Assembly (NCBI GenBank): GCA_032718475.1
Contig: JAUCBJ010008041.1
Location: forward strand, 1-38,137
Direction: 5' to 3'
Source of the DNA: Nemertoderma westbladi
Lineage: Eukaryota > Animalia > Xenacoelomorpha
Length of the DNA stretch: 38,137 bases
The notes beneath the pieces are model-generated. The model was not told the origin of the DNA. It was given only the letters and a program-made list of their open reading frames with translations, and searched no databases. The position numbers and the translations under genes are program-made. Positions 1,796 through 30,588 of this stretch are shown here, piece by piece; the first letter of the stretch is position 1; each line of letters begins with the position of its first letter.

Positions 1796-3014
1796 TGTTC
1801 GCGCTTTCAGACCTTTGGCAGTTTAACCCGCCAAATTAGAATGTCTTCTAGATAATAAATCTGCTTTTTAGTCTATGACAAGTATTTGATTCACTACACT
1901 AGTCGAAACCAATCCGTGCGCGACCATTCACCCGCTGGATATTCCCGGGAGATTGGGTTCGACGGTTTAATTTGTATTGCTATGTAAGCCTAATGTATTA
2001 TTCGACTGACAGTATTATATAATCTCTGACAATATTATTCACCTTCGGTAATATTAACAGTTCCTTTAGGACGTGGCGCTTTATCTACATAAACAGAGTT
2101 ATGACTTAAACTACTCGCAACGATATGGCTTAATTATAATCCACATATATGGCGCATTCTTTAGGAATTGCTTCTTTAACAGACTCACTCATACACTATG
2201 CTGCACAATACTGCACACTAATCTGCCAATCTTCACTGATTTTAGTCACATATAAAAGGAACACAGGCTGACTCATGTAGGGTCTATCAAATAACATTAG
2301 ATTCACTTCAAACCACTTTAACATAAGTCACAATCGTTATTAGTAACCTTTCTCTCTTACCTTCGGTATATCAAGAATATTGGGTTGCGGGGTTATTTAT
2401 CGTTATTCCAAATATAATTATTCATCAACCATATTATGAAGAACTGACAGCAAATAGCAGTATAAAACAACAAGTCAGTACCGGTATGTCAGCAATGAGA
2501 TATAGGCATGTGCATGGTCCGTAGTCAGATATGTTAAAGGATATATGCCCTTTATAATTAAACCTACTAGTGTACGACTAAAAAGCAGTACAGCACAAAA
2601 ATACTTCCAAGCCGTTCTTTCTTTGGCTCAAGACTGAATGTAAACACTGCACATAGGCATTTCGTCATTTCTCGGAAATTCTCTGTACAAGGAGCCACAA
2701 AAACGCTCTCATTGGCTGACTGAGCTGAGAGACACCGTAGAACAAAGGAAATCAACACGTATGAATGTCAGCTGTTAACCGTAGTCATAGTAACTACTGT
2801 TCAAGAGTAGCTATCACTCCTTTGCGTCACGAATTGCCATAGAATCATAAAAATATACCTTTCACAATACACATACGGAGGAAATAAGTCTTAGATCCTC
2901 TAAAAACACCGATACAGTAATAATACGGTCTCTTACACTTATTAAATCAACTACAGAGTATTTTAATGTAAAAGATAATAAAAATAACGGGGCAATTCAG
3001 CAAAGGCTTTTACA
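1796..3014 (-). repeat. 5' LTR of A1 (1219 bp)
   Basis: TG...CA ends homologous to the A3 LTR ends. U5-side part is well conserved, U3-side part diverged. Confidence 0.85.
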
Positions 3015-3761: not shown

Positions 3762-4162
3762 ACCGAAACCCACTGGAAGACTCCGAGCCCCATCTTAACT
3801 CATCCAAGACCTGTGCCCTAATTCATATTCATCCTTACATCCTCTCTCTATCGCCTCTCTCCCCGCCGCTTCGCTTCCCTTCTCTCTCTCCTAGCAGCTT
3901 CCTCCTCCCTCTGTTCCTCTACCCAATCCGCCTCCTTCTTCTCCCATCATTGGTACGTTGTATCTACGTTTCTATCCACTAGATTCTGGGTATTATAGCA
4001 TATCAACTCGACCTTTTGTCCCGGGTGGGTTACAGGCATAGGTTCTGATTCATAAATCACGTCACCCCCCATTTATTGGTAGGAAGTGTAGGACAGAATG
4101 GATCTGCTTACATACATTAACCAGGAGAATAAGAGCAAGTTACAACGAGCCAGGTCAATGGA

Positions 4163-4395
4163 CTACACTGACTACAGTAGATCAAGAAACGGGAAAGTAA
4201 ATAAAGTTTTAATTTACAATATTTTATATGTAATTTTGTTGTCTATCAAATTATTATGAAGAAGTTTATTACCAGTTTATTGAAATTTTTCAATGTACTT
4301 ACGCATTCATTCCCATATCAATGAGATTTCAGGTGCTTAATGTTGTGCAAAAATTTAAATTGGCAGAATAAACTACCGAAGGAAGTTATCCGGTT
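4163..4395 (+). mobile_element. Fragment homologous (inverted) to the non-coding end region of the Harbinger element at 13704-13971
   Basis: CTACACTGACTACAGTAGATCAAGAAACGGGAAAGTAAATAAAGTTT is the reverse complement of ~13925-13971. Similarity continues to ~4395. Confidence 0.75.
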
Positions 4396-4508
4396 ACATA
4401 TTTTCGTGTTTCACATCCTCGAACGCAAAAAATTATACATAATATAATTCATACAGCTCTACTATTAGCCATTGGAATATAGTCCCTTATAATTTATTCA
4501 ATGTCGCG

Positions 4509-6308
4509 TTAAATTTTAATTAACGGCCCATCCTTTCTCGACATACGGTACTCATTCTTCTCAGGGCTCCGCCTTAGCGTTTGCTTCAATTTACGAAGCC
4601 TTGTGAGTAACATCCCCTTGTTATCCGGTAGCGGTAATTTCGGTTGTTTCCATACCATCCCTATGGTGTACCGCCCCTCGTCGCATCTCATCGACTCCTT
4701 TACACTTTGTATTGCCTGTTTATCTTCTACCGAGGTTCCGACCCCGGTCTCTTTCAATCCCTCAAAGTCCTGTCTGAGTAGTCTCCTGAGCTGCTCCTCC
4801 ACTCCTTCATCTTCTATCTCCCTCATAGTTCCCGCAGACATGCATCCTGATGTCTCCGACATCCTAAACGGAATCTTGCTTCTAATTGGTGTGGAAATTG
4901 CCATTGGGTCACGCTGTTTCTCTTCGCCGAAGACCGTCTGCATTCTCTCGTGGGCCATCGGGCAATCCATTACCACTATAATGGATACCTTCCTAACGTC
5001 CACCTCTGGTATCGAGAAATCGATGCTGTCCAGGAATTTGTATTGTTCGACCTCGATGTTGGTTGGTCGCCTGGTGTTGATATTTATCGATTCTATCACC
5101 TGGATGGGGTTGATGGTCGCCCCATAATCGCATCCCGGTGCTATCGCTGCTATCCCGCACCGTCCGGTCCTCATCCCTAGGACCTCATCTTTGCTGGAGC
5201 TGGTTGTTACCACCATCCTACTTGGCCTCGTCTTTAGTCCTATCTCTTCGGCCACCCAATTCTCGACCAATGTGAAGGCTGCTCCACTGTCGACCAGCAT
5301 CAGCGTGGTTACCGATCGACCGCCTTCTCCGATCACCCTCACTGGTACTACCCCGAGTAGTAACATTCCTCTCTTCTTCGCCCCTATGGTGCTTGTCGCC
5401 ATTGTCTGCCCTTTGCCTTGACCGAACTTAATTGGTGTTTCTTTGCATTGATCAGCTCTGTGTCCGCCCGCCACACATCGATGACAGATTCCACTCTTTC
5501 TTGCATATTCCACCTGGTCTTGTTTGGGCAATGCTTGCCAATATCTGCAGTTCATGGTCTGATGAAGTGCGTTCGTATGCAATTGGCATTTGTTGTCTGG
5601 ATTATAGCCGTCCTTATACAGTGCGCTGCGTATCACACTTACGTTCGTACCTAGATCCCTACTGTTCTTATTGTTTGGGTTCGGCCTACTGGGCGCATTG
5701 GGGTTATGTTTGTTTGTGTTGTTATTGTTTGTATTGTTGTTATTTGTGTTGTGCTGTCTGCTCCATGGTGTGGCCCTACCCCCGGCTACATGTGGACTAG
5801 CAGTCCCCTGAGTCGCCGCGTATGTCAGCGATTGTCTGAGCTTTGGCAATGCGTTCGCCGTGTTGTGTTCTGGTTTCGGCCTGTTATATTCGGTCTTTGG
5901 CCCCTTCCCCAGACTATCCTCGCTATAGACTGGGTCTGTGATCAATTCGGCTTCGTAGTTGAGGAAGCTCGAGATTTCTTCTAGGCCCGGTTCCACTCCC
6001 TTCTTCTCCCGGGTGGAGAAAGCGATTTTTCTCCACTTATTGCGCAGCCAGATCGGCAGTGCCTGCGCTATCGTGGTGATGTTATTAGATGCGTTGAGTT
6101 CATATGGCGCATCTAGCGTCTTCAACATGATTAGTGCCTTCTCGACTTTGTTCGCAAACGTCTTTATGCTAACGGGGCTATCCTGTAGGCCATCCGATGT
6201 TATATCCCTCAGGGTCTGCCGGATGATCTTGGCTGGGTGCCTGTACTCCCTGTCTAGGGCCCGCCATGCAGTTGTGAAGCCACCCTCGATGCCCTGATAC
6301 TGCCTCAC
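4509..6308 (-). pseudogene. B1 gag core, Cys-His knuckles, aspartic protease and pre-RT linker (part of a broken polyprotein)
   Basis: CQLHTNALHQTMNC and CHRCVAGGHRADQC knuckles; LMLVDSGAAFTLV protease motif; GRYTIGMVWK...LPDNKGMLLTRLRKL is the typical Pao pre-RT segment. The last ~12 aa probably come from flanking DNA. Confidence 0.85.
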
Positions 6309-9127
6309 GATGTCATACGCTGGGCCTCCCGTATATACCTGTAGATATTTTAGGCACTCTGCCTGCGTCAGTATAGCGTCAGATTAACCAAGTATATTGT
6401 TGATATTGTAATGGGGGAATGTCACCCTGCCCCCCCCCCCCCACCGGTGGTATGTTTGGTACTGGGGTTGATGTTAATATATTGGGGCCCATAAACCTAT
6501 CCGCAATAACTCTCCCCTCCCCTGGATATATGTTATGTCCCTGCATGCTATTGTCATACTGCTGTGCTGGTACTGGTATAGGCCTATCCACTTCTGGCCT
6601 ACCTACCAGTATGTACTCCGCGACTTCCGGGTTTAACCCCGCCGTCCACGCTACCCTATCGCCTACATTATCTCTCCCAGCATGGCCTATAGTATGTGCA
6701 GTAAGGCCTACAGTATGTCCTGCAGTCTGTATGTGTCCCTCCGGACCGAAGTTTAACCTTCTCGAATAATCCAAGAAGTCCTCCCCGCAACTACCGTACC
6801 CTCGATCGGCAGCTACATCCCGTCGGGGACTTTCTCTTCGATCCCCTCTCCTATTCTCGTCCTTGTACCGGTACGCCCTGTACCCCTCTCTCGGCGTATA
6901 GTACACCTCGCCAGGTCGCGTCTCTCCGGGATGACGGCAATCTCCCGGAGTTCGACCCCACTGACTCTCCAGCTCCATCTCTACTACGACGGCTCGCTAT
7001 CCGTCCTCGCTCTCCTGTCGCTCGCAATGACACTTCTTCTACTCTCTTCTCTTCTTCTCTCTGCAGTGTAGCATCCCCGCTCGTGAGATCTCTCGTCGAC
7101 CTCCCGGTTAAACTCCACTGTCCTTCTCCCTCTTCTGACCGGACCACCGCTAATCTCTCGTTGTGGGGCTCCTGTAGCCCCCCCCCCCCCCACTCGCCAC
7201 CTACCACTTCACTATCTCTCTCTTCGCTTCTACGCCCCTCTCTAGTCGACACACTATCCCTACTGCGGCTGGGTCTATTCACCCCCGCCTCTCCCTCTAT
7301 CACTGCGTGTCCTGACCGGCTCCCGTCGGGTTGACTCACCCCTGCTACTCCCTGCGTATTAACTATTTTGGCCTACCAGGCTCCCATCGGGGTGTCTCAC
7401 CCCCGTTACCCCCTGCGTACTGATTATGTGGCCTGGCAGGCTCTCGTTGGCCGGGCCACTTTCATCTTCCGCGTTTATATTAATAGCACCATTGTCAATA
7501 TTATTTTCTAAATTATTTAAATTATTAGAATTATTCTGTGCTGAATTCGGATTATTATTTAAATTATTCTGTATATTTGAATTAGAATCCGGATTATTTT
7601 GTTCGTTTGAATTAAAATTATTATTTTTAGATTATTTTGCGTATTTAAATTAGGATCGTTCGGATTTAAATTATTGTTACCGGGCAAAATATTATTTCCT
7701 GCAATGAAAGTTTGATTAGGGTTGTCTACTACAGTATTATTAATATTGACGCCTTCTAGCGTATTATTATTACCCCCCCCCCCCCCCCCCCCCCCGCCTG
7801 TACGGTTACACCAGTCTTGGGTTTGTCGTCCGGTCCCTGTAAGTGGGGTATTAACAAACGTTTCCATAACTTCTGGCTCCTCGTAAACAGTACCCGAGCC
7901 AGCCTCACTCTCTGATAGCCCCAATTGCGCCAGTTCTAATCGGCGCTTTTGCTTGGCCTGATATTGCATAAGCCCCCTCAACCGGGCATGCATATCATCC
8001 CGCACACGCTTTCCCGTTCTCTCTCTCTCCCTATCCTCTCGCAAACTCTGCTCGGCCAACTCTGCCTCTCTCGCAATCCTCTCAAGCCGCCTCGCCTCAC
8101 GCTCTTTACGCTCGTTCGCCTCTCTCGCCTCTCGCTCTTTACGCTCATTCGTCTCTCTCGCCTCTCGCTCCTTTCCTTCCCTTATTTCTATCTCCTCACA
8201 CTCTCTAAAGTTTCTTGCGACCCTCTCAGCCCTTTCTTTATTCTCTCTCGCCAGTTCCCTCCCTTTCTCTAATAACGCAGTTCCCTCGTCCAACTGCCTC
8301 TCTAATTCTTTCTGGTCTAGCGCCACCATGTCTAATTGTCATGCCAGATCTATCTCTAACACCCTTCTTGCTTTTGCAAAGGATGTAGCGGACTTATTGG
8401 TTGCGACAGACCCCAGTTGCCTCTCTGTCCTGCTAACTTTCCCCCGCTTTCTGGGGTTCTTGCTAACCGACGAGACCGAATCCTCGGGGTTAACCTCGGA
8501 TTCGCCCTCGTGCAGGTCTGCCCAACCCACTAACTTAATTCCCCTAGCATCCACTAAATACGGCCCTACGTACACTACTTGGGGCTCCATAATCCCGGAC
8601 CACCACAGTTCCAATAGTTCAGTGGCGACCCCCCTCGCTCTCTCACTCGCTAGTTCTCCCTGCCTGAAACGAACTAGGTATCTGAAATGTTTATTCGACT
8701 CACCTAGTCGCTGGCTCAACTTCCCCTGGTCTACCTTTGCTCCCTCTCTGGCCTCCTTGAGCTGTTTCTTCGTGGCGTTGTAGGCCCGTCGAAGCCGATC
8801 GCTGGTTCCGACGTCCTCATCGCCGACACCTCCTCCTCCTCTCCTGGTTCGGCGGCGTACTGTCGCCGTTCTGGTGGGCCGTTCGTCGCCCTCGGCCTGT
8901 GGCTGGCCGGCGACTTCGGCACTTCGACCGCCGTCGTGCGTCGACTCGTCCCCTCATTGTAGTAGACTGCCGCCCTCCGCTTGTGCTGCCGGATCGTCTC
9001 TCGTCGGCGAATCCGGCGTTGCAGGTCGATACCGTCGTGTCACGGCCTCACGGATCATTTCGTTGGTATCGTCCGGGGTCCACGGTGGTGTCCTCTCTCC
9101 CTCTAGATCTCGGGGCTCTGTGCTCAT
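6309..9127 (-). pseudogene. Long low-complexity/coiled-coil N-terminal gag region of B1, broken by stops and frameshifts
   Basis: ATG at 9127 lies ~60 nt after the LTR. Fragments 8339-8719, 7559-8329 and 6379-6978 are colinear and homologous to the B2 ORFs. Confidence 0.75.
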
Positions 9128-9179
9128 CTTTAATTTCTATGGTGTTGGCTGGCAGTTACAGTTTACAGTGGTCCCTGGA

Positions 9180-9188
9180 ATTTCGTAC
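9180..9188 (-). promoter_or_regulatory. Putative self-priming PBS of B1 (GTACGAAAT)
   Basis: Abuts the LTR end. Exact reverse complement of LTR-internal 9372-9380. Confidence 0.75.
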
Positions 9189-9753
9189 TGTGATGGGATC
9201 AGGGGATCCCGACCGGTTTATTAGGTTACGAGTCACCGTGTAATTGAGAAGAAGATAGTTTGTCATTATCGTTCTGATATTGTTATAGGTAAACTGAAAT
9301 AAAATATGATAGCACAGTTGACAGAATGTATGCAGTATGATATAAATGTTGTACCGGTAGTGACGGTGACGGTACGAAATGTCACCGGTCTGCACTGAAT
9401 GACTGAGTAAACTAAACTGGTCGGTACTGTATGCAATATGATATATGATTGTCACTCCTACATTACTTTGGCCTCTCAATCTAGCGGATGCTTCCCTCGC
9501 CCTTATTGGCTAATAGTCTAATTCTCGGCTCTCACCTCTGTGGGAGTGCTTCTCCCCCCGCTGCTGTTACTTTCCCTCTCGAGGTGGTTTGACCTCTAAC
9601 CTCCCTTTGTGTGGCATTCGGGGCTGTGCGTTGTCCCCGTTATTGGATGTGATACGAGATTAGTTGTGATTAATCTCGTATCTCCAATATTGCTGAAAAG
9701 GCGCCACTTCCCAACTTTATGGGGATAGTGAGGCGGAATTGAATCCGCTCACA
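9189..9753 (-). repeat. 5' LTR of B1 (565 bp)
   Basis: TG...CA ends. Shares GACTGAGTAAACTAAACTG, ATTGGCTAATA, CTCCAATATTGCT and GCGGAATTG blocks with the B2 LTRs. Confidence 0.85.
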
Positions 9754-11716
9754 TAAACCCTAAATTAGATACAAGTACTTATACAACATATAACTAGCAG
9801 TTAAATATACGTGAACAGCCAAAAGAACCACGGTATCTGCTGGAGTGACCGGAGCACAAAATCACCAGTCTGTCCTATGCCAAGCAGTCCTGAAGTAGTA
9901 CCGGGGTTAATTTAACTATAATGGTATGCATAACAAGCATAATTACTGTAAAGGATAAACTTGGGGAGTTGTAGGTTGCAAATACTTGCATAAACTCTGA
10001 ATAATAAATATTATGCTACCCGTACAGACTATTCAAACAAAACACAGACCAAATGCTGGCAGACTACTGTCAAGCCTAAATAAACTACAGTATATGCAAT
10101 CTCCGAAATGGTTAGTTAGTAAGCGTTCTAACTACGTAGTACGAGTTATTCTTTCGTGGAGGATTTACCTTACAGCACTGGATGCCTCCTCCTTCCTAAC
10201 TAGCACTTTATTGGACAGAACTCTACATACACTGCAATCGCCTCAGACCTAACAACAGTTAGACAACAATCCGGCCTACAAATTATTTACACAATCTGAG
10301 CAGGCTTACACGCCTTCTGCTCAATATTACACTTACCAGTAACTAAAACCAACAGAAACATGTAAGCTCTAAAAGAAATAAGGGGTGTACAGGCCCTACT
10401 CTCTTAAACAGCCTTCTAATATACAATATATCATAATCAAATAATACTGGGTAAAGTACTGGTTCGGGTTACTAGGCCTACAGTCTACCGTCCGACCGGT
10501 ACGTTCGATTTTATTGCCTACTGAGCAATAAAGAAACTAAAATCTATTAATGTTCGCGCTTTCAGACCTTTAGCAGTTTAACCTGCCAATTTCAATTGTC
10601 CTTTTGATTATGAATCGACCTTGGCCCTTACCAATTACCTGGTGTACTGAAATTACATCCGCCGAAGCCAGTCCGTGCGCGGCGTATGACCCAAGGTGTG
10701 GGAGACTGGATTCGCGTTCCCTAGGAAGTTATTGCGGTGTAGGCTACGTTGTATTATTCGATTGATCTCTACTATATAATCTCTGACAACTATATTTACT
10801 TTCAGGGAAATATTAATAGTTCCTTTGGGACGTGGTGCTTTAAGTATGAAACAGAGTTATGACTTACACTAATCACAACTAGATGGCCACAGAGATTCGT
10901 AAATAGCGCATTCTTTAGGAGATGCTTTATTAACCTTCACACGACTTCACACTACTTCACACTAATTCACACTAATTTGCCGACCGTCACTGATTTTGAT
11001 CATATATAAGGAGGATTGCAACTGACACACGTAGGGATTATGAAATCGCATTTAATTCACACAAAACCACTATAACTTGAGTCACAGTTGCTACCGGTTA
11101 ATCCTTCCTCCGCATATAATAATCAGTAATCAAGAAGATTGAGGGAGGAAGAGAAGATTGAAGATTGATTATTTATCGGTATTCTCCAAATATAACATCC
11201 ATTAATATATACAGCAATTAACACAATATAAAACAGCATTAAAACAGTGCGGTGAACAGTCAGTATGTGTTCATGAAGTTCAGTGTTCCGGTATGACAAG
11301 AGTTATTGCCGCATGTTCTGTTCAGTCCATGTGCATTGTGCAGTCGTACAGTACGAATTGTTAATAGATTTACCTTATTATAACTAAGGCCATCAGATGT
11401 TCTTGGGCCAAAGTCTGAAACGACCGTACTTAGTACAGAATTCTGAGAGGAATCTAATTCTCAGAAAAACGATAACTAAATGCGCATGCGCTAGTTTCCT
11501 CAGGTAGGTCTCCACTGGCATAACTGGGAAGATTGCTCTGATTGTCTGAAAAAGCTTGAACAAAGAGATCTCCACGTACACAAAGAATTAGCTGACAGAT
11601 TTCGTCACCTTGGTTCTAATTTCTGTCCGACGCGTAGTTGAACAATTTTAGGGCTATTTTAGAGTATTCTGCGCATTGCGTAAAAATGACTTGTTTTGTC
11701 CGCAAAAGCTTTTACA
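9754..11716 (-). mobile_element. BEL/Pao family A copy A2: 5' LTR (10551-11716) plus partial leader with one ~288-bp unit
   Basis: Colinear with A1 698-3014. LTR ends TGTAAAAGCTTTTGCG...AGCGCGAACA on the minus strand. Confidence 0.88.
10540..10550 (-). promoter_or_regulatory. Putative self-priming PBS of A2 (TTAATAGATTT)
   Basis: Abuts the LTR end. Exact reverse complement of LTR-internal 11361-11371. Confidence 0.8.
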
Positions 11717-12717: not shown

Positions 12718-13600
12718 TTATTTATCATTTAACAAAGTAATCTTATGAAGAATGTTTCGAGCCAGGTTGTTGTCAACAAACATTACCTCGGCATTCTCGC
12801 CAATTGAGATAACTGGAGGATCCTCTCGTATAGGCCTACATCCGTTTTCTTCATCTCCAACTCCTGAAGTCTCAACAGCTGAAGCATCCAACGTAAACAT
12901 TTGAGGATCTGGAACTACAAAATTCAATCGTCTCATCATTTCTTTGGCCTTTATCGTCTTAAGGTAAATTAAATACCGGTTTTCTTTTATCATTAACAAC
13001 TGCTGTTGAACCAATTGAAGATCAAGAGCGGTCTCTGTCGATTTGACCCCGGCGGCACAAATACGTTTGGCCACAATATATTCGGATGTGTGATCTATGA
13101 TCGATCTACCAGGATCGGTTCCTGTACTAACTGGAACTGGAGGTAGCGGAATATTTTCTTTTTCGCGAATATCATTACCAGTAGTGTTAGATCCACCACC
13201 CTCCACCCCATATCCTAAACCAAAAATTACATCGCCACTTGAACCATGAATTATTTCGAACATTTTCATGACATAAACGGAGGGGTTGCGACACCGGTGG
13301 TCCACCTCCGGTTCGATGGTATTTTAATGCATTAGCGTAAGTGCGAACAACTTGCTTTGTGTTTTCGATCTTGTTAATTAGTTCGTCTTTTGATCGAGTA
13401 GCCTCCACCCCCGAAACGTTAAAACGATTTAGCATGACCTGCCATGCACGCTCCTTCATTTCCGGAGTTATGTTTTTCGTTTTATTAAAAGAACCACTAA
13501 TGAGGCCATGGTACTTCCCGTACATTGTTACGAACTGACAGGCGTCATTTACTGTCCAATTTTTCTACCTTTTCCGGCTCTTCTGCTTTGACTCAGCCTA
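12718..13600 (-). pseudogene. Harbinger-associated Myb/SANT-like DNA-binding protein, frameshifted, convergent with the transposase
   Basis: NWTVNDACQF...KERAWQVMLNRFN...RSKDELINKIEN...RTGGGP pattern. Split into ORFs 13187-13525 and 12718-13305. Confidence 0.8.
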
Positions 13601-14051: not shown

Positions 14052-16175
14052 CTACTACTATGATCGGCATGCTGCATTGCAGCTGCATTTTTAAGAATGC
14101 TGTGCCGGCTTGTCAACAAAATTGCACCGCCACAACTCCCTATCACCCATGACATTTGCTAGATCATCCGCATCTTTAAGGCCAGTGTCCTTTAAGATGC
14201 GTCTCAAGAAAGTCATGGGCTGTCCACCATGCTTATTCACTCCATGAGGCTGCCAAAGTACAAGATTATGCACTGGCTGGTCCTCACGGCGAAAGCAATG
14301 TCCTGCAAAGCGGAGGCGATTTTGTTCTAGTGTCAAGCTTGGGGGAACCAATGAGACACCTCCAATGTTATATAGTGTCTGGTTGGAGATGTGTGCATTG
14401 TACTTGACACAATGAACCCGGCGTAGCATTCTTGTGAATGTGCCATCCAGAGATTTGGTGTCCTCAGCAGTTAGAGCCCAGCATGGACTCCCGTAGAGGA
14501 GTACTGGAACTACTGCTGCTCTAAATAATCGGACCTTAAGTTTCCGATTAATTCTCGGTGACTTCCAAATCCTGGAAAGCCTATTCAAGGCTGCCCATGC
14601 CTTTCCCTTACGTATTCGAAGGTCCTCACCTGACTTCCGGATCCATGATCCCAGGTAACAGAAGTCGTCCACATGCTCAAGCATACCATCCTTTGAGCTT
14701 ATGTTCATCCGATCAGAGACTTGCTGAGGACGTTCAAAGTTAACTGTCAGAAATTTGGTCTTTCTGGAGTTAATAAAAAGACCAACACTAGAAGCAGCAT
14801 GTTCTAATGAGCTGAGGAGCCGTTGGGCTCCCTCTAATGATTCTGATAGTACTCCTAAGTCATCAGCAAAGTCTAGATCAGTTAGGTACTTGGCAGGATT
14901 TCCTCGACTTCTGGAGCCAGTAGGTGGAGTTATCATCACCCCATCATCATTATAATGATCTAAGGACATGCGTAGAACATAGTCAACCACAATAATGAAC
15001 AAGAATGGTGCAAGTGTGTCTCCTTGGAGGACGCCCCATAACACTTCAAATGGTTCTGTGTCACCGTCAACAGTAGACACAAATGTTGTCGAACCATCGT
15101 ATACTGATCTGATTGCTGCAATAATTTCATCAGGAATCCCATATAATGAAAGTATGCTGAACATACGTGAGCGAGAGACTGAATCAAAGGCCTTGAAGAA
15201 GTCAACAAAGATAACAGCCAGATGCCTGTCTTTCTTTTTTGATAACTCTTCAATTATCCTTCTAAGTGCCAAAATGGGCTCCATGGTCCCACGACCTTTA
15301 CGGAACCCATTCTGATTTCCACGGAGCAGTCTCTCAATGGGATCCCTGATGCGATTTAATAGAATCCTATTGTATAGCTTTGCAGCAATCGAGATCAATG
15401 AGATTCCCCGAAAAGAACCATAGAGTGTTAGGTTGCCCTTCTTGGGAACTGGCACCAACTTATTTGTTTTCATTTCTTGTGGGACTCTTGTTGTTCGGTA
15501 CATGTCTACTATGATGGGATAGATGAGCTTTAAACACTCAGGTATTTTAAAGACCTCAGGGGGAACACCATCTACTCCACTGGCACGATTGGTCTTAATG
15601 CTCTTTGCAGCAGCCTTCACTTCTGCAAAGGAGATATCGCCAATGGGAATATCTGGGAGTACAGACTCAGACACTTTTACTTCTATAAAGTTATCAGGCA
15701 ATACCCTGTCATTATTGAGGAGCTTTTCAAAGTGGGCTTTCCAACCATTGAGGCGATCGGCTGGTGATTCAGCCTTAACCTTGGTGGTTGGTTGGCTTTT
15801 CCGCCCAGTAAGCAGATTGATCGATTTCCATGCCTGGGATGATTGCCTGCTGTCGTCAGCATCATTGATAGCATCAACCTGTTGGTTTATTAGCTCCTGT
15901 AGATTAACAGAGTACTGCCTGTTTAAGGACCTAGATGCAGCCTTAACTGCATTCTTGGCCGCTGTAGTCTGTTTGAGTCGGGACTCTTTCTGCGCCCTAT
16001 GAAGGTCATTTCGGCACTTCTGAATTTTGTTGTCAGTCCAGGGGGCCCTTTTCCTGTTTCGAGGGTATACAGGAACTGTTTCTGCAGCTGCTAACTTAAC
16101 TGCTTCTGTAAAGACAGTATAGCCCTCACAGTGATCTGCCGCCTCAGAGGCAAGAGCCTCATACCTGTTGCTCAG
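14052..16175 (-). mobile_element. 5'-truncated RTE-clade LINE
   Basis: 13-bp TSD ACGGAAAAACTTA at 14039-14051 and 16176-16188. (TAG)n 3' tail and very short 3' UTR. Confidence 0.92.
14091..16175 (-). CDS. RTE-type reverse transcriptase ORF (uninterrupted; endonuclease domain lost by 5' truncation)
   Basis: QNGFRKGRG, FVDFFKAFDSV, GVLQGDTLAPFLF, LDFADD, FCYLGS, VLLYGS and RLRFAGHC motifs. Confidence 0.92.
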   Translation of the reverse strand: MSNRYEALASEAADHCEGYTVFTEAVKLAAAETVPVYPRNRKRAPWTDNKIQKCRNDLHRAQKESRLKQTTAAKNAVKAASRSLNRQYSVNLQELINQQVDAINDADDSRQSSQAWKSINLLTGRKSQPTTKVKAESPADRLNGWKAHFEKLLNNDRVLPDNFIEVKVSESVLPDIPIGDISFAEVKAAAKSIKTNRASGVDGVPPEVFKIPECLKLIYPIIVDMYRTTRVPQEMKTNKLVPVPKKGNLTLYGSFRGISLISIAAKLYNRILLNRIRDPIERLLRGNQNGFRKGRGTMEPILALRRIIEELSKKKDRHLAVIFVDFFKAFDSVSRSRMFSILSLYGIPDEIIAAIRSVYDGSTTFVSTVDGDTEPFEVLWGVLQGDTLAPFLFIIVVDYVLRMSLDHYNDDGVMITPPTGSRSRGNPAKYLTDLDFADDLGVLSESLEGAQRLLSSLEHAASSVGLFINSRKTKFLTVNFERPQQVSDRMNISSKDGMLEHVDDFCYLGSWIRKSGEDLRIRKGKAWAALNRLSRIWKSPRINRKLKVRLFRAAVVPVLLYGSPCWALTAEDTKSLDGTFTRMLRRVHCVKYNAHISNQTLYNIGGVSLVPPSLTLEQNRLRFAGHCFRREDQPVHNLVLWQPHGVNKHGGQPMTFLRRILKDTGLKDADDLANVMGDRELWRCNFVDKPAQHS

Positions 16176-16762
16176 ACGGAAAAACTTAAGTAACCCTGGG
16201 AGGTACCTTATCAAGCCACTTAAGTCTTAAGTAAATAAAAAATGCAGTTTGCTTTGTGCCGGTAATGTTATGGCTTTTTTCCAGTAGATATAAATAGGCA
16301 TTGACGAAAATCGAGAGTAAACAACATCAAACTCAATCCACTACAAGTCAGATCGTGGCGCACATTGGCCGTAAGTGTAAATAGTGATCTTAAGTGCAAA
16401 TTGACCTCAAATGAAATAATGTATATAGTTTATTGTTTTGGTTAGAAAACACCATCACACAGGTTACCTTAAGGTAAACCACGCAGGTAACCTGCTCCTT
16501 TCACTTCATGTTTTTAATTAAATTAACCGTTTAACGCCCACCCCTACTTCCCCATGTCAAAAATGTTTCATATTTTGGAAACTAACTCAAAATGGCCCAA
16601 TAAAAAAACTTTACTTTTACACTTTTGCAAAAAAAGTGTTTGTTCAGAAGTTACAGCTATGTTCCATTTAAGGTGCGTTGGGCATTAGAGCAGATATTTT
16701 TTTTCTAAATTTTTTGGAAAAGCATTCTCCACCTTTACTATACTTTATAACACAAACCTTAT

Positions 16763-17171: not shown

Positions 17172-18376
17172 TGTAAAGGCTTTTGCGTAATTAGCCGGTT
17201 ATTTTCCCCGTAAAGTACTCTGTAGTTGGTTTACCAGGCATAAAAAGGCCGTGTCCTTACTGTACTGGTGTTTTAGAGGACATAAAAGTAATTTCTTCTG
17301 TATGTGTACTTTAGCGGACATAATCCGCAATTCTATGACGTAAAAGCCGAAATACTCTTGAACAGTGTAGTTACTATGACGACAGCTAATAGCTGAGCTG
17401 TACACGTGGAGCCTCTGCACGGAGCCTTGGTTCTTTGTTCTGCTCAGCTCAAATGACGACATCTATCAGCTGTGTCCACGTCAGTTCGACCAATCAGAGA
17501 TTTTCCCTTTGTGTAAAAAGCTGTACAGCAGAATCCCATGATTCAGTACTGACGTTTCCCCCACGCCTAAGAACACCGGCCGGGGAATGTTTTCTGACAT
17601 TAGAGCGTCTTTAATTATAAGATCATCAAACTGTTATCTCGGTACTGACTACAGCACCTCGGTTAACTTGGTCAACTTAGTTAAGTACACTTGCATTATT
17701 TACTGCTATTTACTGTGTTGTTAATTGTATCTTCGTTTACATATTATTATTGGGAAGAATATTGATAACGATCCGAAACCCCAATCTTCTTGATACACTA
17801 AGGTTAGAGAGACCGGTTACATATAACAATTTGCGACATACATTATCGTGGTTTGTAGTGAGTTCAATGCTACTTAATAGGCCCTACAAATGTTGGTTGC
17901 TGTTCTCTTTATATATGATTAAAATCAGTGAATATCGGCAATTCAGTGTGCAGTTGTGTGCAATAGTCTGTGTGTGCTTGACCGAGTAACAAAGCATTTC
18001 CTAAAGAATGCACTTTGGTGATCTATAAGACATACCGTTGTGTATAGTGTAAGTCATAGCTCTGTTTAAATAGATAGAGCGCCACGTCCTAAAGGAACTG
18101 CTAATATTTCCCAAAAGGTGAATAATATTTGTCAGAGATTATATATTAACGATCAATCGAATGGTATGGTAGGCCTGCACCGCAATCAAATTAAAGCATC
18201 CAAATCCAGTCTCCCGGGTATATCCAGCGGGTGAATGGTCGCGCACAGACTGGCTTTGGCTAATGTTAGAATTATTATAGGTGTTCAATACTTGTCATAG
18301 GCTGGAGTAGATTTATAACCTAGAAGACATATAGATTTGGCGGGTTAAACTGCCAAAGGTCTTAAAAGCGCGAACA
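17172..18376 (+). repeat. 5' LTR of A3 (1205 bp)
   Basis: Direct repeat of 34057-35259. About 3 substitutions and one 2-bp indel seen by eye. Confidence 0.96.
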
Positions 18377-18387
18377 ATAACAGTTTG
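18377..18387 (+). promoter_or_regulatory. Putative self-priming PBS of A3 (ATAACAGTTTG)
   Basis: Abuts the LTR end. Exact reverse complement of CAAACTGTTAT at 17627-17637 (and 34512-34522). Confidence 0.8.
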
Positions 18388-18664
18388 TAGGATCTTGATT
18401 GCGGCGTAAGCGATCAAGACTAAAGTACCGGTCGACCGGTAACCAGTAGGCCTGACTGCCTGATCATCCGGACCGGTACTTACAACAGTACAGGTACAGC
18501 AGTATTATTCGATTTTGATAGTTATATACCGGTAGGCCTTAATAATTAATCAGGGAGGGCCCGCCCTGGTTTTTTATTGAGATTTTACTTATTTCTGTCA
18601 GTTTTATTTATTTGTAGGCCAGTATTGAGCAGAAGGCGTGTAAGCCTGCTCAGTCTGTACAGAC

Positions 18665-20555: not shown

Positions 20556-23228
20556 ATGTCTGACACAAAACGGGCACTGTCAGATAGTCTTTTGGAAGGT
20601 GTTAGAATGAGTCTTAGACTTGGACAGGGTCTTGAAAGGAAGATGGCAGAGGCAATGGCAACAGCAGAAGCGGAAAGAAAGGCGGAAGAGGCAATGGCAA
20701 CAGTAGAAGCGGAAAGAAAGATAGAGACACCTGTACTCCCAGAACCTGCCTATAAATTCCCTTTGAACAGTACTAAACTACCTGTGCCCAGTAGGACTGT
20801 TCCCGAGTCCGAACCCGTCCTGGACGCCGAGCGAGATATCAAGAATTTATCGCCCGTCGTCTCTCGCTCGCCCGCTATTACGTTGGCGACTCCCGCTTCG
20901 GCGGTTGAGTGGGTAGCTGAGGGACGACGGGAGATGGGTCTCCTGCTCGAGCAGCTGAGGGAACACTGTTTGTGCTCCTCTCAGCAGGTCCGGGAAATGG
21001 AAGAGACTGTTCAGCAGCTCAAGGGAACAGTAAGGGAAAGTAGGTTAGAGTTGCAAAAGGTGCAGCAAAGTATCGCGTTAGAACGCGATAAATTAGTGAA
21101 CATACAAAGGGGTATAACACCACCCCCTGTAACAATGTGTCAACCCGTTAGGTCTGAAGTATTTCATGCGCAAGGTGTGGAGCCTACACGCATCTATACT
21201 GCTAGTGAAGTAGAAACTCCTATAGTAAACCCTATTCAGGGTAATTATAAACCTGTTGATAATAATATTCCATATAGACCTGATCATAATCCGAGAAATT
21301 TATATACCGATAATTCTATATTCAATAATACGATGGCTCAAGAAAGTTTTACGCGTCAGATGGCTAGAACAGAAGCCCACCAAGCGGTCAAAGTGGGAGA
21401 AATCGTCAAATTCAATGGAGATGAGATGAAATGGTTATCTTTCAATGAATATTACAAAGATAGCATACAGAACTCTGTACTATCTAACGGAGAGAAACTT
21501 AGATTCCTCATCAAGTGCTTGGAAGGACCTCCCAAATTAATGGCGTTAAAGTTTATTGGACATCCAGATGGATTAAGACAAGTTTGGGATACATTAAACA
21601 TCAGGTATGGTAATAGGACTAACATAGCTAGGTATTTATATGCGAAATTAATGGCGCCCCGAAAGTTTCTTAGCAGCGGGATTATAGAATTTTCCGATGA
21701 AATTCAGGAGATCTGTAGACAGCTAGATTGGTTAGGTAAGTCTCATGAATACCAGAACTCTATGGTTGTAGGAGCCTTAGCATCTACTTTACCAAAGGGT
21801 GGAGTAGGTACACGCTGGGACAAGAAAGTGTTATATATGATGGAACAACAACAACGAGACCCTACCATGGCTGATCTCATGTCCTTCTTAGATAGTGAAG
21901 TAAAATTACAACTCATAAAGCAGTCCAGAGAGAAAACATCGGAAAATAAGGTAAGTGAGAAACCCGTTTCTAGGAGAAGGGTAACACCAGTGTGTTATAC
22001 TGACGACGGCGAAAGCCAAGTCTCTCAGGAAGAGGACAGCGGGAAAGACACAGCAAAATCCTACTATGACAACAAGACCTATAAAGACGTAAGTAAATAT
22101 AAGTCTCGAACCAGTGACCGGAGAGAACAGGTAACAACAACTCCTCCTACGTCTCCTAAGAGAATTCACGGAAGAAAGCCCGAAGAAAGAACGAGAGTGC
22201 ATAACGTTGCCCAAGGTAAAGTGAGTAACATCAAACCAAAATGTGCGCTGTGCGACGGGCCCCACCGTTTGAGAGTGTGTGCTGAATTCCTAAAGAAATC
22301 CCTGGTAGACAGACGTGAAGTCATGTGGGATAAGCGGTTATGCTATAATTGCCTCAGACCAGGACACCAACGGCGAACCTGTTTCTCCGAAGTAAAGTGT
22401 GCAAAGTGCGGTGCGAAACATCACATCTTGTTACGCAGTGAATTCGAACGAAACAACCCAAGTCAGGTAAGTGAGCCCGAACTACATGTCCAATTCAGTG
22501 ATGTAAATGACACTGATCAAGAGTCTGAGATGGAAGGATTCTATACGGACGAATTCTCCGACGCCAACGAATCCTGTTACCTAATAAATACCGCAGTGTA
22601 TCGAGCACTTACGTATGAAAAGGACACCGACAATGAGTTCCCCCCAACTACCTTTGACAGACAACCATCTTGGAAACCTCCAACTTCCAACGTAGGAATC
22701 AGAGAATTTCCTGTAGTGCAGGTAAGAGTTCACGGTCCCAACAAAAGTTACATAGTGAACGCCCTCCTTGACTCCGGCAGCACAGGAACATTCATCGATC
22801 AAGAACTAGCCGAAGACATCTTTGCTGGACAACCCAAATTCCGAACTAAGTTGGATATGTCAGGAATTATGCAGGTTTGGAAATCTACCATAACGGCAGA
22901 TTACTATGTAGGTGCGTTGTCCACCCCCCAGGATAAATTAGGAGAACAAAGTATAAGGTCAGTAAAAATGGTGGCTATAAAGAACTTCGCTACTACCCAG
23001 GTAGAACCTTATAACTGGGACGAGGACGAGAGCATCCAGCAGCTTAAGATACCTCGATTCCACACAGATTATCCTGGAGTGCAAATACTCATCGGCCAAA
23101 ACGCGCATGAGGCGCTAGAGACATTGGAGAAACGGCCTGCTCAACCACAGCCACTACAAACCTATGCAGTAAGAACTAGAGTAGGTTGGTACTTCACTGG
23201 CCCTTCCCGTATAACTCTCAAAGTGTGA
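20556..23228 (+). CDS. A3 Gag-protease polyprotein (BEL/Pao), interrupted after codon 889 by B2
   Basis: KFNGDEMKWLSF...SNGEKLRFLIKCLEG gag core; three Cys-His motifs (CALCDGPH, CYNCLRPGH, CAKCGAKHH); ALLDSGSTGTFI protease motif. Confidence 0.93.
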   Translation: MSDTKRALSDSLLEGVRMSLRLGQGLERKMAEAMATAEAERKAEEAMATVEAERKIETPVLPEPAYKFPLNSTKLPVPSRTVPESEPVLDAERDIKNLSPVVSRSPAITLATPASAVEWVAEGRREMGLLLEQLREHCLCSSQQVREMEETVQQLKGTVRESRLELQKVQQSIALERDKLVNIQRGITPPPVTMCQPVRSEVFHAQGVEPTRIYTASEVETPIVNPIQGNYKPVDNNIPYRPDHNPRNLYTDNSIFNNTMAQESFTRQMARTEAHQAVKVGEIVKFNGDEMKWLSFNEYYKDSIQNSVLSNGEKLRFLIKCLEGPPKLMALKFIGHPDGLRQVWDTLNIRYGNRTNIARYLYAKLMAPRKFLSSGIIEFSDEIQEICRQLDWLGKSHEYQNSMVVGALASTLPKGGVGTRWDKKVLYMMEQQQRDPTMADLMSFLDSEVKLQLIKQSREKTSENKVSEKPVSRRRVTPVCYTDDGESQVSQEEDSGKDTAKSYYDNKTYKDVSKYKSRTSDRREQVTTTPPTSPKRIHGRKPEERTRVHNVAQGKVSNIKPKCALCDGPHRLRVCAEFLKKSLVDRREVMWDKRLCYNCLRPGHQRRTCFSEVKCAKCGAKHHILLRSEFERNNPSQVSEPELHVQFSDVNDTDQESEMEGFYTDEFSDANESCYLINTAVYRALTYEKDTDNEFPPTTFDRQPSWKPPTSNVGIREFPVVQVRVHGPNKSYIVNALLDSGSTGTFIDQELAEDIFAGQPKFRTKLDMSGIMQVWKSTITADYYVGALSTPQDKLGEQSIRSVKMVAIKNFATTQVEPYNWDEDESIQQLKIPRFHTDYPGVQILIGQNAHEALETLEKRPAQPQPLQTYAVRTRVGWYFTGPSRITLKV

Positions 23229-23772
23229 CGGGATCTACGGATCCCGGTTTATCCGTTGGGTTTTCTATCCACGCGTCCCCGCCGTGTGTGAAAGGTAAAA
23301 GAGTTCTGATGTTCGGTAATATGTATAAAGGTATAATAGTCTGATATAGCACAGTATAGTATGACACGGTTACCGGTAGATAAGTATGATGGCGGTAGCG
23401 GACGGTGACAGAAGTCCCCGTTCCACCCTACTGATCTGACTGAGTAAACTAAACTGAATAGGGAAGCACCAACAGGTAATATATGTACTGCACAGTTGGC
23501 CATATTACTGTACCTAGTCGATGCTGTCCCCCCATTGGCTAATATCCCACTTCTCGCCCTTTCACCTTCCCTGGTGTGTTTCCCGTTGCCCCTGTTGTTC
23601 TCTCTCTGTTAGGGGTTTGGCCCCTGACCCTTATTGTGTGTGTCTCCTTTGGGGCCTATTGTCCCCGTTTACTGGGGTGACACGAGGTTGATTGGTAATC
23701 AACCTCGTGCTCCCAATATTGCTCAATGGCTTACTTTGTGGGTTCATGTTAGCGGAATTGGATAAGCTAACA
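23224..23772 (-). repeat. 3' LTR of B2
   Basis: Direct repeat of 30040-30588, adjacent to the PPT. Confidence 0.96.
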
Positions 23773-24199
23773 CTCCCCCCCATGCTATCTTCCCGGTGAG
23801 AAGATAGCATCCACCAAAAAATGCGCTACAATTCCGCTGGATCCCGATCTAGTATCGGGTGTGGGGTGGGTTATTTTCTTTCGGAGCCGGCTTTCCTGGC
23901 CGCTCCCTATGGGTATGATATTGCTACCCTCTGGCGTTTCGTGTCGGGCCGATCGTGCGCTTCTCTCACACAACTTTTGTTTCCCCAACACTTTCGCCCT
24001 GACTCTACTCTTCCTCTCCTCTCTTGCTCTAACTCTTGGACTTCCCTGTCCCTCACTCTTCCTCTCACTTCTCCCCCCCCCACGCTTGAATTGCGCCCAC
24101 ACTCTCTCCACACTATCTCCATACCACCTCTCGCTATCTCTCTTGCCCTCCCTAAGGCCCAAATCTCTAATGCTACCCCTGTGCTATCATACCATCTAC

Positions 24200-25000
24200 C
24201 TACTGCTTACTAACTCTAACTATCTAACTCTACTAACTACTAACTCTACTCTCCGCTAACTCTCACTACTTCTGGCTCTAACTAAAGCCTCTAACTTTCT
24301 ACTAACTCTAACTAGAACTACTAAGTCTAGCTAACTCCTACTAACTCTCTACTTCTACTAACTCTACTTGACTCATCTAAGTCTACCAACTCTCTAGCCC
24401 TTTAACTAGAACTCCCTAACTCTACCCACTCTTCTAACTACGTGGCGCTTGCGGTGCCCACAACCACTCTACTATCTGGCACCCTATGTGCCCTTCTACT
24501 ACTCAACTACCTCTCTAACTCTACTACCTGGCACCCTATGTGCCCGTCTCTACTATTCTACTCTCTGGCACCCTATGTGCCCTCTCTACTACTCTACTCT
24601 ATCTCTAACTTACTTCCTTTACATCCACTCGCCTGCACGTGATGCTCTGAATGCCGGCAGAGTGGGTACGTTAATTATGTGAACTACTACTGACTCTACT
24701 AACTCTACTAACTCTCTTCTAACTCTACTAACTCTTTTTGTGCCTGGCACCTCTTGTGCCCGGCACCTTCTAACTCTACTAACTCTTTTTGTGCCCGGCA
24801 CCTCTTGTGCCCGGCACCTTCTAACTCTACTAACTCTACTAACTCTCTACTAACTCAACTAACTCTACTACTAACTCAACTAACTCTACTACTAACTCTT
24901 TTTGTGCCCGGCACCTCTTGTGCCCGGCACCCACCCTAATTAACATACCCTGCTCTTACATCAAACACGTCATCACGCCCTTGCCCCACTAAGTTCAGCG
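24200..25000. repeat. Low-complexity CTAACT/CTACT tract with GGCAC-N5-GTGCC hairpin repeats
   Basis: GGCACCCTATGTGCC x3 at 24478-24580 and GGCACCTCTTGTGCC x3 at 24746-24925. Confidence 0.85.
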
Positions 25001-25078
25001 CATTCCCTACTAACTCTAACTACGTGGCGCTTATGGTGCCCACAACCCTCTACTGCTCTACTAACACTCCTAACTAGT

Positions 25079-25597
25079 GGTACTACGTACCCTCTTACTA
25101 CTCTAGCTCTCTCTACTAGCTAGCGGTACAACGTACCCTCTTACTACTCTAGCTCTCTCTACTAGCTAGCGGTACTACGTACCCTCTTACTCTTACTAAC
25201 TCTCTCTACTCTTACTAACCGGTACTACGTACCCTCTAACTCTTACTCCCTAACGGTACTACGTACCACCCTCTAACTCTTACTCTCTAACGGTACTACG
25301 TACCCCTTAACTCCTAACTAACTAGCGGTACTACGTACCCTCTAACTCTCTAACTAACTAGCGGTACTACGTACCCTCTTACTCTCTAACTAACTATCGG
25401 TACTACGTACCCTCTAACTCTCTAACTAACTATCGGTACTACGTACCCTCTAACTCCTAACTAACTAGCGGTACTACGTACCCTCTAACTCTAACTAACT
25501 AGCGGTACTTACGTACCCTCTAACTCTCTAACTAACTATCGGTACTACGTACCCTCTAACTCTCTAACTAACTATCGGTACTACGTACCCTCTAACT

Positions 25598-25630
<33 letters not shown>

Positions 25631-25940
25631 GGTACTTACGTACCCTCTAACTCTCTAACTAACTAGCAGTACTTACGTACCCTCTAACTCTCTAACTAAC
25701 TAGCGGTACTTACGTACCCTCTAACTCTTTAACTAACTATCGGTACTACGTACCCTCTAACTCTAACTAACTAGCGGTACTTACGTACCCTCTAACTTTC
25801 TAACTAACTAGCGGTACTTATGTACCCTCTAACTCTCTAACTGACTAACGGTACTTACGTACCCTCTAACTCTCTAACTAACTAGCGGTACTTACGTACC
25901 CTCTAACTCTCTAACTAACTATCAGTACTACGTACCACCC
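25079..25940. repeat. Minisatellite of about 23 GGTAC-T(T)AC-GTACC hairpin units, period mostly 34-37 bp
   Basis: Counted by eye. Spacers are built of CTAA and CT modules. Confidence 0.92.
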
Positions 25941-26021
25941 TTTAACTAACTAACTAACTAACTAACTCTTACTACCTAACTTCTACCTACTCTATTATTT
26001 AATTATTTTCATTAATTTTAA

Positions 26022-29000: not shown

Positions 29001-29875
29001 TAACCCATCCTGCTCATTCGCCACCATTTCCAATCTACACTCCAGATTCATCTCCCGCACCCTTCTTTCTTTTACGGAGGATGTAGCAGACTTATCGGTT
29101 GCGACGGACTCCCGCCGCCCCTCCGTCCTACTAACTTTCCCCCGCCTCCCGGAACTTCCTCCAACCGACGAGACCGAATCCTCGGAGTTAACCTCGGATT
29201 CGCCCTCCTCAGGTCTCTTCCAACCCACTAATTTTACTCCCCGGGCATCGACTAAGTATGGCCCTATGTACACTACACTAGGTTCCATACCCCCACATTC
29301 CCATAGTTCAATCAGTTCGTTGGCAACCCCCTTCGCTCTCTCCTCGGCTAGTTCTCTCTGCCCAAAACGCATTAGGTAATCAAAGTGTCTGTTCGACTCA
29401 CCTAGTCGTTTCCTCATCTCACCTCGTCTATCTTCGCCCCTCCTTTGGCCTCTCTCAGTTGCTCCCGGGTCGCGAGGTAGGCCCGTCGAAGTCGATCAGA
29501 AACCCCGACGTCCTCGTCGCCGACCTCTCCTCCATCTCTCCGGGTCCGACGTCGTACCGACGGCCCCACCGTCGCCGTTCCGGTGGACCGTCCGTCGTCC
29601 TCGGCCTGTGGCTGACCGGTGACATCGGTACGTCGACCCTCGCTCCGCGTCGACTCGTCTTCCTCTTCTCCTCCCGACTCGATTTCTCTTTGTAGACGAC
29701 CCCCCACATCTTGGTTCGCCGGGTCGCTCGTTATCGACGTGGCGTCAACGTGCGTCGACGTGGTCGGCGTAGCATCGACCGGCGTCGTGGGTTCGTATCG
29801 TCTCGCCGTGGCCTCGCGGATCGTTAGATCGTCGTCCGGGGTCCGCGGCGGTGTCGTTCCTTTCTCTCGACTCAT
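26022..29875 (-). pseudogene. B2 degenerate gag: N-terminal region and Cys-His knuckles; gag core, protease, RT and integrase absent
   Basis: ORFs 29414-29875, 28296-29417, 26834-27172 and 26022-26507 are homologous to B1. The segment matching B1 ~5860-6390 is missing near 26800-26845. Confidence 0.8.
27690..28290. repeat. Internal tandem repeats in B2 gag (3 x ~120 bp and 2.5 x 60 bp)
   Basis: GTAG-poly(C)-CACCCGCCACTTCTAACTTCACTA x3; CGTGGCCTAYCAGGCC at 28147, 28207 and 28267. Confidence 0.85.
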
Positions 29876-30030
29876 CTTCGTCTTTGGTGGCTGGCAGCCA
29901 CAGTCTGTCAGTTGGTTGGATCTAGTTCTATCACTGTCAGACTGTTAGGGCAGCTGCTAGGATTCTATCACTGTCAGGGCAGCTGGGTGGATCTGATTCT
30001 GTCACTGTCAGGGCAGCTGGGTGGATCTGA

Positions 30031-30039
30031 TTCTGTCAC
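30031..30039 (-). promoter_or_regulatory. Putative self-priming PBS of B2 (GTGACAGAA)
   Basis: Abuts the 5' LTR end. Exact reverse complement of LTR-internal 30221-30229 (and 23405-23413). Confidence 0.75.
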
Positions 30040-30588
30040 TGTGACGGGATCTACGGATCCCGGTTTATCCGTTGGGTTTTCTATCCACGCGTCCCCGCCG
30101 TGTGTGAAAGGTAAAAGAGTTCTGATGTTCGGTAATATGTATAAAGGTATAATAGTCTGATATAGCACAGTATAGTATGACACGGTTACCGGTAGATAAG
30201 TATGATGGCGGTAGCGGACGGTGACAGAAGTCCCCGTTCCACCCTACTGATCTGACTGAGTAAACTAAACTGAATAGGGAAGCACCAACAGGTAATATAT
30301 GTACTGCACAGTTGGCCATATTACTGTACCTAGTCGATGCTGTCCCCCCATTGGCTAATATCCCACTTCTCGCCCTTTCACCTTCCCTGGTGTGTTTCCC
30401 GTTGCCCCTGTTGTTCTCTCTCTGTTAGGGGTTTGGCCCCTGACCCTTATTGTGTGTGTCTCCTTTGGGGCCTATTGTCCCCGTTTACTGGGCTGACACG
30501 AGGTTGATTGGTAATCAACCTCGTGCTCCCAATATTGCTCAACGGCTTACTTTGTGGGTTCATGTTAGCGGAATTGGATAAGCTAACA
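30040..30588 (-). repeat. 5' LTR of B2
   Basis: Direct repeat of 23224-23772. Confidence 0.96.

Follow-up and report, generated by a model that had tools for sequence, protein, structure and literature searches.

The two copies of an LTR retrotransposon family, B1 and B2, that lie in the 38,137-nucleotide stretch of DNA analysed here (the window) probably prime reverse transcription with their own RNA instead of a host tRNA, a reading to which we assign, from the sequence, a probability of roughly 0.8. Directly visible in the DNA are the pairing between the PBS and a segment of the element's own LTR, the change of this pairing from element to element, the missing TGG site and the BEL/Pao identity of both copies.

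The window is animal-type DNA, dense in nested LTR retrotransposons. B1 (edge at 9754) and B2 (23224-30588) were each inserted within copies of a second family, A, and since both B copies are nested in A copies, the window reads as a nested cluster of young RT-less elements; neither A nor B has RT, A1 retains a short RNase H piece, and the LTRs of A1 are 99.6% identical. The 5' LTR of B1 (9189..9753, minus strand, 565 nt, TGT...ACA) sits within an A-family copy whose homology ends at 9754, the B1 insertion edge. Its LTR end is set by homology to B2 and by an approximately 15-fold fall in contig depth at 9188, and 6 of 32 contig pieces, among those listed, begin at this end, 9189. Within the window there is no B1 3' LTR, so that of its two LTRs only the 5' one is present; a remnant of the B1 gag-protease frame (4509..6383, minus strand) carries DUF1759 (E 1.8e-7) and an aspartyl protease and stops before RT. 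B2 spans 30588-23224 (minus strand) inside the pol region of A1. Its 5' LTR (30040..30588) and 3' LTR (23224..23772, with a second copy of the partner at 23413-23405) form a 549-nt pair with 2 differences, and this pair fixes the LTR end together with a 5-nt TSD that flanks the element (30593-30589 and 23223-23219). With its TG...CA LTRs, its TSD and a polypurine tract (23793-23773, minus strand) that precedes the 3' LTR, B2 has the structure of a BEL/Pao element. The LTRs of B1 and B2 share 62% identity. Inside B2, a long array of 35-37-nt tandem repeats (24365-25975) stands in place of pol. The window also holds a non-LTR-type reverse transcriptase ORF of 711 aa (14091-16226, minus strand, RVT_1 and DUF6451) and an ORF with a Myb/SANT-like domain (13187-13564, minus strand, PF13873), which we presume may come from a Harbinger-type DNA transposon.

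By their gag-protease, the part on which the placement is based, RT and integrase being absent from both, B1 and B2 are RT-less BEL/Pao LTR retrotransposons. The relatives recovered by protein search were BEL/Pao polyproteins of at most 31% identity, the few named ones coming from ribbon worm and clam, and 6 of the 7 relatives scanned had a Pao peptidase A17 domain; in a tree, the B1 protease region formed a long branch without strong support. Proteins of the Ty3/gypsy chromovirus type, which define the Tf1/sushi lineage, were not found, those present being of BEL/Pao type. A B1 protein search restricted to near-length matches found nothing, the RNase H piece and two DNA motifs had no matches when viral contigs were scanned, and both hits to Rfam were below threshold. 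The ICTV profile describes the Belpaoviridae as tRNA-primed, with an 18-nt PBS for tRNA-Arg or tRNA-Gly (PMC8742986). B1 and B2 resemble this profile in their TG...CA LTRs of 0.2-1.2 kb, polypurine tract, DUF1759 gag and protease, and differ from it in that its 18-nt tRNA PBS is absent (PMC8742986). ARAGORN returned 0 genes, and a TGG tRNA-type site was found within 60 nt of the LTR end in none of the five window elements (0/5). Because ancestry was judged from the proteins, we read the missing tRNA PBS as a deviation within the BEL/Pao lineage, one that falls outside the ICTV definition as written.

In place of such a site, B1 has a 9-nt PBS flush with the LTR end (9180..9188, minus strand, no TGG in 60 nt), and the exact complement of this PBS, the predicted self-primer or partner, lies in the LTR at 9372..9380 (minus strand). 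At the LTR end of B2, the corresponding PBS (30031..30039, minus strand) is likewise flush and has its exact complement in a partner at 30221..30229 (minus strand). Both pairings had been proposed in the preliminary description, and they were confirmed as exact 9-nt Watson-Crick matches at these coordinates on the minus strand (9188-9180 with 9380-9372 and 30039-30031 with 30229-30221), as was the difference between the two PBSs at 5 of 9 positions, which takes fewer events if a 1-nt shift is allowed. The partner lies 183 nt (B1) and 181 nt (B2) from the LTR end. The PBS of B2 belongs to a 34-nt tandem duplication (29961..30042, minus strand, 2.4 copies, 97% matches), which the preliminary description did not contain; the leader at 29941-30042 holds about four head-to-tail PBS units, of which the first two from the LTR are exact matches to the partner and the rest have decayed. 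A splice-made extension of the B1 and B2 partners, sought at offset 0, was not found.

The A copies show the same relation with 11-nt partners, in A1 at 17627..17637 (plus strand, PBS 18377-18387), in A2 at 2534..2544 (minus strand, PBS 1795-1785) and in A3 at 11361..11371 (minus strand, PBS 10550-10540). Thus all five window elements (5/5) match their own LTR, while PBS-LTR matches across elements reach at most 7 nt, and partner positions are homologous within each family, between B1 and B2 as among the A copies. Chance alone does produce such matches, about 0.5% of window positions carrying a 9-nt match of this kind. Dinucleotide shuffles of the LTR reached 9 nt in 10 of 2000 cases for B1 and 1 of 2000 for B2, and the 11-nt matches recurred in 3, 1 and 1 of 2000 shuffles for A1, A2 and A3 (the LTR starts of A2 and A3 being set approximately for this test). 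A chance origin is effectively refuted by the recurrence of the match in five of five elements, at homologous positions within families, and by the controlled scan of relatives described below. Each of the A copies has, just 5-7 nt before its partner, an AT-rich motif resembling TATAA (17611-17622, 2549-2560, 11376-11388), and the distance from partner to LTR end is 738-810 nt, against 46-216 nt in the relatives, for which an LTR intron downstream of the A partner, or another start site, could be the cause. An ACCGGT palindrome, possibly a dimerisation or packaging signal, occurs in the A leaders (18420-18535) and three times in the B1 LTR (9384-9390, 9353-9358, 9211-9217).

The pairing might also be structural only, serving packaging, dimerisation or a translation switch, while priming falls to a host RNA, for instance an internal fragment of a tRNA. 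This would agree with the ICTV description of the family as tRNA-primed (PMC8742986) and with the half-tRNA priming that, according to the available part of the source, exists in Copia groups (PMC6317226). We nevertheless hold it to be very doubtful, given that five different PBSs each match their own LTR only, that the matching site always adjoins the LTR end, that a TGG site is missing and that junction-spanning partners occur in 16 families of relatives.

To obtain these relatives, metagenomes were scanned with 14 aligned full-length hits, giving 78 loci; 72 of them were scanned for junction partners, the other 6 having too little upstream DNA. Among the nine loci whose ends are defined by an LTR pair, seven have a self-partner, one a TGG site and one neither; six of the seven self-partners run across a splice junction and one is contiguous, and one needed its boundary moved by 10 nt. 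A looser blind scan overlapped its null in match length, and the counts were therefore taken from a blind scan with canonical GTAAG donors and three controls, in which a junction partner of at least 11 nt was present in 21 of 72 loci (16 families), against 0/72 in the reverse, 1/72 in the complement and 0/72 in the direct control. The self-priming and the clade-wide spread suggested in the preliminary description both gain support from this sequence evidence. Two loci with near-identical RT, the same PBS and the same 11-nt partner are of particular interest, as L073 has the partner split 5+6 by a GT-AG intron of about 170 nt (L073:518-700) and L074 has it contiguous (L074:18-28), an apparent case of intron loss judging by the two sequences. 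Contiguous partners like those of B can thus arise from split ones, and the primer that many relatives would assemble across a splice junction seems to exist in family B in contiguous form.

Junction partners of 10-15 nt were seen in L001, L010, L015, L019, L023, L024, L025, L033, L036, L043, L044, L054, L077 and others, and at the junction-partner loci the spacer from LTR end to PBS is 0-4 nt and varies with the family. A TGG-type PBS lies 5 nt beyond the LTR end in L021 (56-80) and L031 (18-45). In a quick RT tree (quick search, midpoint root, 64 of 78 loci, 14 being dropped for short segments), self-type loci are distributed over most branches and the TGG-type is not cleanly separated; the self-type L049 falls in the same clade as L021 and L031, so that primer type may have switched more than once. 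The window LTRs showed no nucleotide similarity to the 78 loci (best E 0.18), a comparison in which summed tblastn scores are inflated by tandem copies.

Where the RNA of B1 and B2 starts decides whether the primer is internal or terminal. A 20-mer is identical in B1 (9400..9419, minus strand, predicted +1 near 9418) and in both B2 LTRs (30253..30272, minus strand, predicted +1 near 30271), giving 3 window matches against 0.01 expected. In B1, a TATA-like motif (9441..9447, minus strand) and a CCAAT box common to B2 (9505..9509, minus strand) lie about 27 and 90 nt upstream of the predicted start, and, in line with the preliminary description, all three motifs recur in B1 and B2 at matching spacing. 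Going by consensus motifs, we take the 20-mer to be an initiator and the other two to act as CCAAT and TATA-like promoter elements. Their spacing fits a start 38-42 nt upstream of the partner in both copies, and on these motifs we lean towards a primer that is internal and not the 5' end of the RNA. Among the relatives, initiator-like motifs 10-45 nt upstream of the partner are weakly enriched (7/19 against 5/19 in a control window).

Plain Tf1-type self-priming shares the self-priming core and differs in the start site: the RNA would start at, or be trimmed to, the first base of the partner, the primer would be its first 9 nt, and the upstream 20-mer would be promoter DNA only. Predicted folding speaks for it, as the primer helix has a probability of 0.93 in B1 and about 0.95 in B2 (two tandem PBS copies summed) when the RNA starts at the partner, compared with 0.04-0.11 at 37 C when it starts upstream at the initiator. 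The 9-bp primer helices are short (-8.8 and -11.9 kcal/mol), and forcing them in the long RNA costs 0.9 (B2) and 3.4 (B1) kcal/mol. The sharp 5' edge of the complementarity would likewise fit run-off copying, in L024 a TATA motif precedes the partner by 31 nt, and segments of the leader can also pair, over 8 and 6 bp, with downstream stretches of the LTR, which resembles the Tf1 pretzel. However, a terminal start is at odds with the CCAAT, TATA-like and initiator spacing in both copies and with the unequal distance from 20-mer to partner in B1 and B2; the B1 downstream arm is altered at 9291 in about 99% of X1 depth; the B2 outer helix is significant (5/1000 shuffles); and with split partners the first exon would have to be as short as 4-10 nt. 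We thus consider a terminal primer rather unlikely. The internal primer, already suggested in the preliminary description, holds with regard to motif spacing, the B2 outer helix and the split partners, which need a first exon and so make it plausible, and is weakened where folding pairs the primer better in an RNA that starts at the partner.

The outer helix would join the 5' end of such an RNA to the leader. In B2, its upstream arm (30238..30244, minus strand) pairs with the leader at 30025-30019 over 7 bp exactly, and the 5 of 1000 shuffles refer to the whole helix, whereas the B1 leader segment that complements the initiator region (9153..9170, minus strand) is not significant (160/1000), nor are the outer helices of A1-A3 (120, 170 and 728 of 1000); among the relatives, 5 of 21 reach p<=0.05. 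A further idea, in which the leader preserves as a fossil an over-copy of the 5' extension of the primer, holds statistically for B2 only. On the other side of the primer, the 5' arm of an inner helix (9363..9370, minus strand) pairs with 9239-9232 over 8 exact base pairs, with a predicted probability of 0.97-0.98. By duplex energy, this helix is not significant (p 0.12 in B1, p 0.31 in B2, 1/21 relatives). Its 3' arm in U5 (9231..9239, minus strand) includes 9231, where nearly all other copies have a base that pairs with the conserved C directly after the partner (99-100% of depth in 4/4 runs), and the same pairing is present in B2. This majority base extends the inner helix to the conserved C, and the primer 3' end would thus abut a second helix. 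A terminal hairpin before the B1 LTR end (9195..9210, minus strand, probability 0.96-0.99) lies in the part of highest X1 depth. Candidates for the arms of a three-duplex pretzel are present, with duplex energies that are not significant.

These depths were obtained by aligning to 9090-9480 the contigs from 4 public runs, which represent at most 3 samples, and do not give copy number. In X1, the summed depth is 25,000-28,000 at the LTR end, about 4,000-4,500 over the partner region, about 4,000 over the U5 arm at 9230-9243 and 400-600 at 9286-9341, and the first three of these, the peaks, mark constrained parts. At 9291, in the B1 downstream arm, about 99% of X1 depth has another base. Within the B1 partner, a variant at 9374 accounts for 29-50% of contig depth, and a PBS change matching it was not seen among the 40 of 118 rows listed.

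The preliminary description had further proposed that the partner is displayed in a hairpin loop, where the partner, in a loop of 10 nt, would dock on the PBS before being cut. A stem around the partner does exist as sequence, with 7 bp in B1 (9364..9387, minus strand, 10-nt loop) and 4 bp in B2, but a stem as short as that of B2 has a background rate of 14%, and the display itself finds little agreement with the predictions. The B1 hairpin reaches -9.6 kcal/mol alone and a probability of only 0.003-0.005 in context, a minor conformer because its 3' arm pairs with 9239-9232 instead; that of B2 (-2.8 kcal/mol) has a probability of 0.000 in context, and a stronger B2 hairpin (-8.7) buries the partner. 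The stem is 1-3 bp long in the A copies; among 23 rows of relatives it measures 4-5 bp in 4 and is never longer, which is at background (three of the rows had a non-canonical donor and the wrong upstream flank, and the coordinate for L043 was wrong). A 9-bp helix within a 10-nt loop leaves a single bridging base, which is sterically unlikely as judged from kissing loops. Still, the 7-bp stem of B1 stands against a background of 0.9%, its arms are without variants among the rows listed while the loop varies, loop-loop pseudoknots are beyond the folding program used, and as the RNA is transcribed a local hairpin would be the first structure to form. Display in a loop seems to us quite unlikely, and from the modelling the local hairpin is more likely to be a folding intermediate or competing early-folding conformer than the priming state.

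Together, we regard as likely a model of self-priming from a probably internal partner, with nested helices, a cut before the conserved C and rewriting of the PBS, whose steps from start site to cleavage we infer from Tf1. The RNA would start at the conserved initiator about 40 nt upstream, and the partner would pair with the PBS within nested helices, namely an outer helix of 5' end and leader, the 9-bp primer helix, an inner helix that begins at the conserved C and pairs with U5, and the terminal hairpin. RT/RNase H supplied by an autonomous relative would then cleave the RNA where the primer helix meets the inner helix, immediately ahead of the C (9371, minus strand, in B1). This cleavage position, also put forward in the preliminary description, is supported at the sequence level by the C that directly follows the partner in five of five window elements and in 17 of 21 relative families. 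The new 3' end would be extended across U5, with the cut also setting the end of the strong-stop DNA, and plus-strand copying of the primer would rewrite the PBS in each cycle, which would explain the matched changes of PBS and partner. In the split families, the strong-stop DNA would transfer to the 3' LTR copy, landing beyond the intron, so that the intron would survive unless the 3' LTR copy is also spliced. More tentatively, and as a possibility rather than an expectation, a large branch of marine-invertebrate BEL/Pao elements may have replaced the tRNA by an internal self-primer with a capped 5' extension, assembled by the spliceosome across an LTR intron in many families, contiguous after intron loss in B and released by a cut where two helices meet, ahead of a conserved C. 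Self-priming would then have arisen independently a third time, and for the first time with a primer that is not terminal.

Of the three superfamilies of LTR retrotransposons, BEL/Pao has received the least study, and officially it is described as primed by a host tRNA. Should our reading be correct, a mechanism proven only in gypsy elements of fission yeast would extend to the third superfamily, elements scored by PBS-based annotation as having no primer site would be explained, and such elements would escape control via tRNA supply or tRNA fragments. An internal primer raises the question of what limits primer copying to 9-15 nt, and in the intron-split forms replication of the element would be coupled to splicing by the host.

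We found no published self-priming in BEL/Pao in the literature covered, outside of which lie subscription journals and Repbase Reports, and the available main text of two BEL/Pao surveys does not mention PBS or tRNA (PMC3118150, PMC554778). The B-family feature is real, and we read it as a variant of a known self-priming mechanism. Closest to it are Tf1, Tf2, Tj1 and the Tf1/sushi group, in which, as far as the available text of the sources goes, the PBS just after the 5' LTR complements a short LTR segment, helices flank the primer, and the primer is freed by a cut on its 3' side (PMC7175516, bioRxiv 10.1101/2022.12.06.519325, PMC4600332). The window elements likewise have a PBS that is complementary to a segment of their own LTR and changes with it. 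They differ in that the Tf1/sushi elements are Ty3/gypsy chromoviruses of another superfamily, and in that many BEL/Pao relatives assemble the partner across a splice junction. Self-priming has also been predicted from LTR-PBS complementarity for plant Tcn1 (gypsy) and TAR, Houba and Osr-1 (copia), where, in the accessible portion of the paper, the complementarity is at least 10 nt and starts 0-5 nt after the LTR (PMC6317226); in contrast to these plant gypsy and copia elements, B is an animal BEL/Pao family, and its 9 nt are below that threshold (PMC6317226). The fungal GalEa Conserved Hairpin Site also lacks a tRNA PBS and has 9-nt complementary sequences at the PBS position (PMC5445492). 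There, according to the part of the source at hand, it is a downstream stretch of the leader that provides the partner, the LTR having yielded none (PMC5445492), whereas in B1 and B2 the partner lies upstream, in the LTR.
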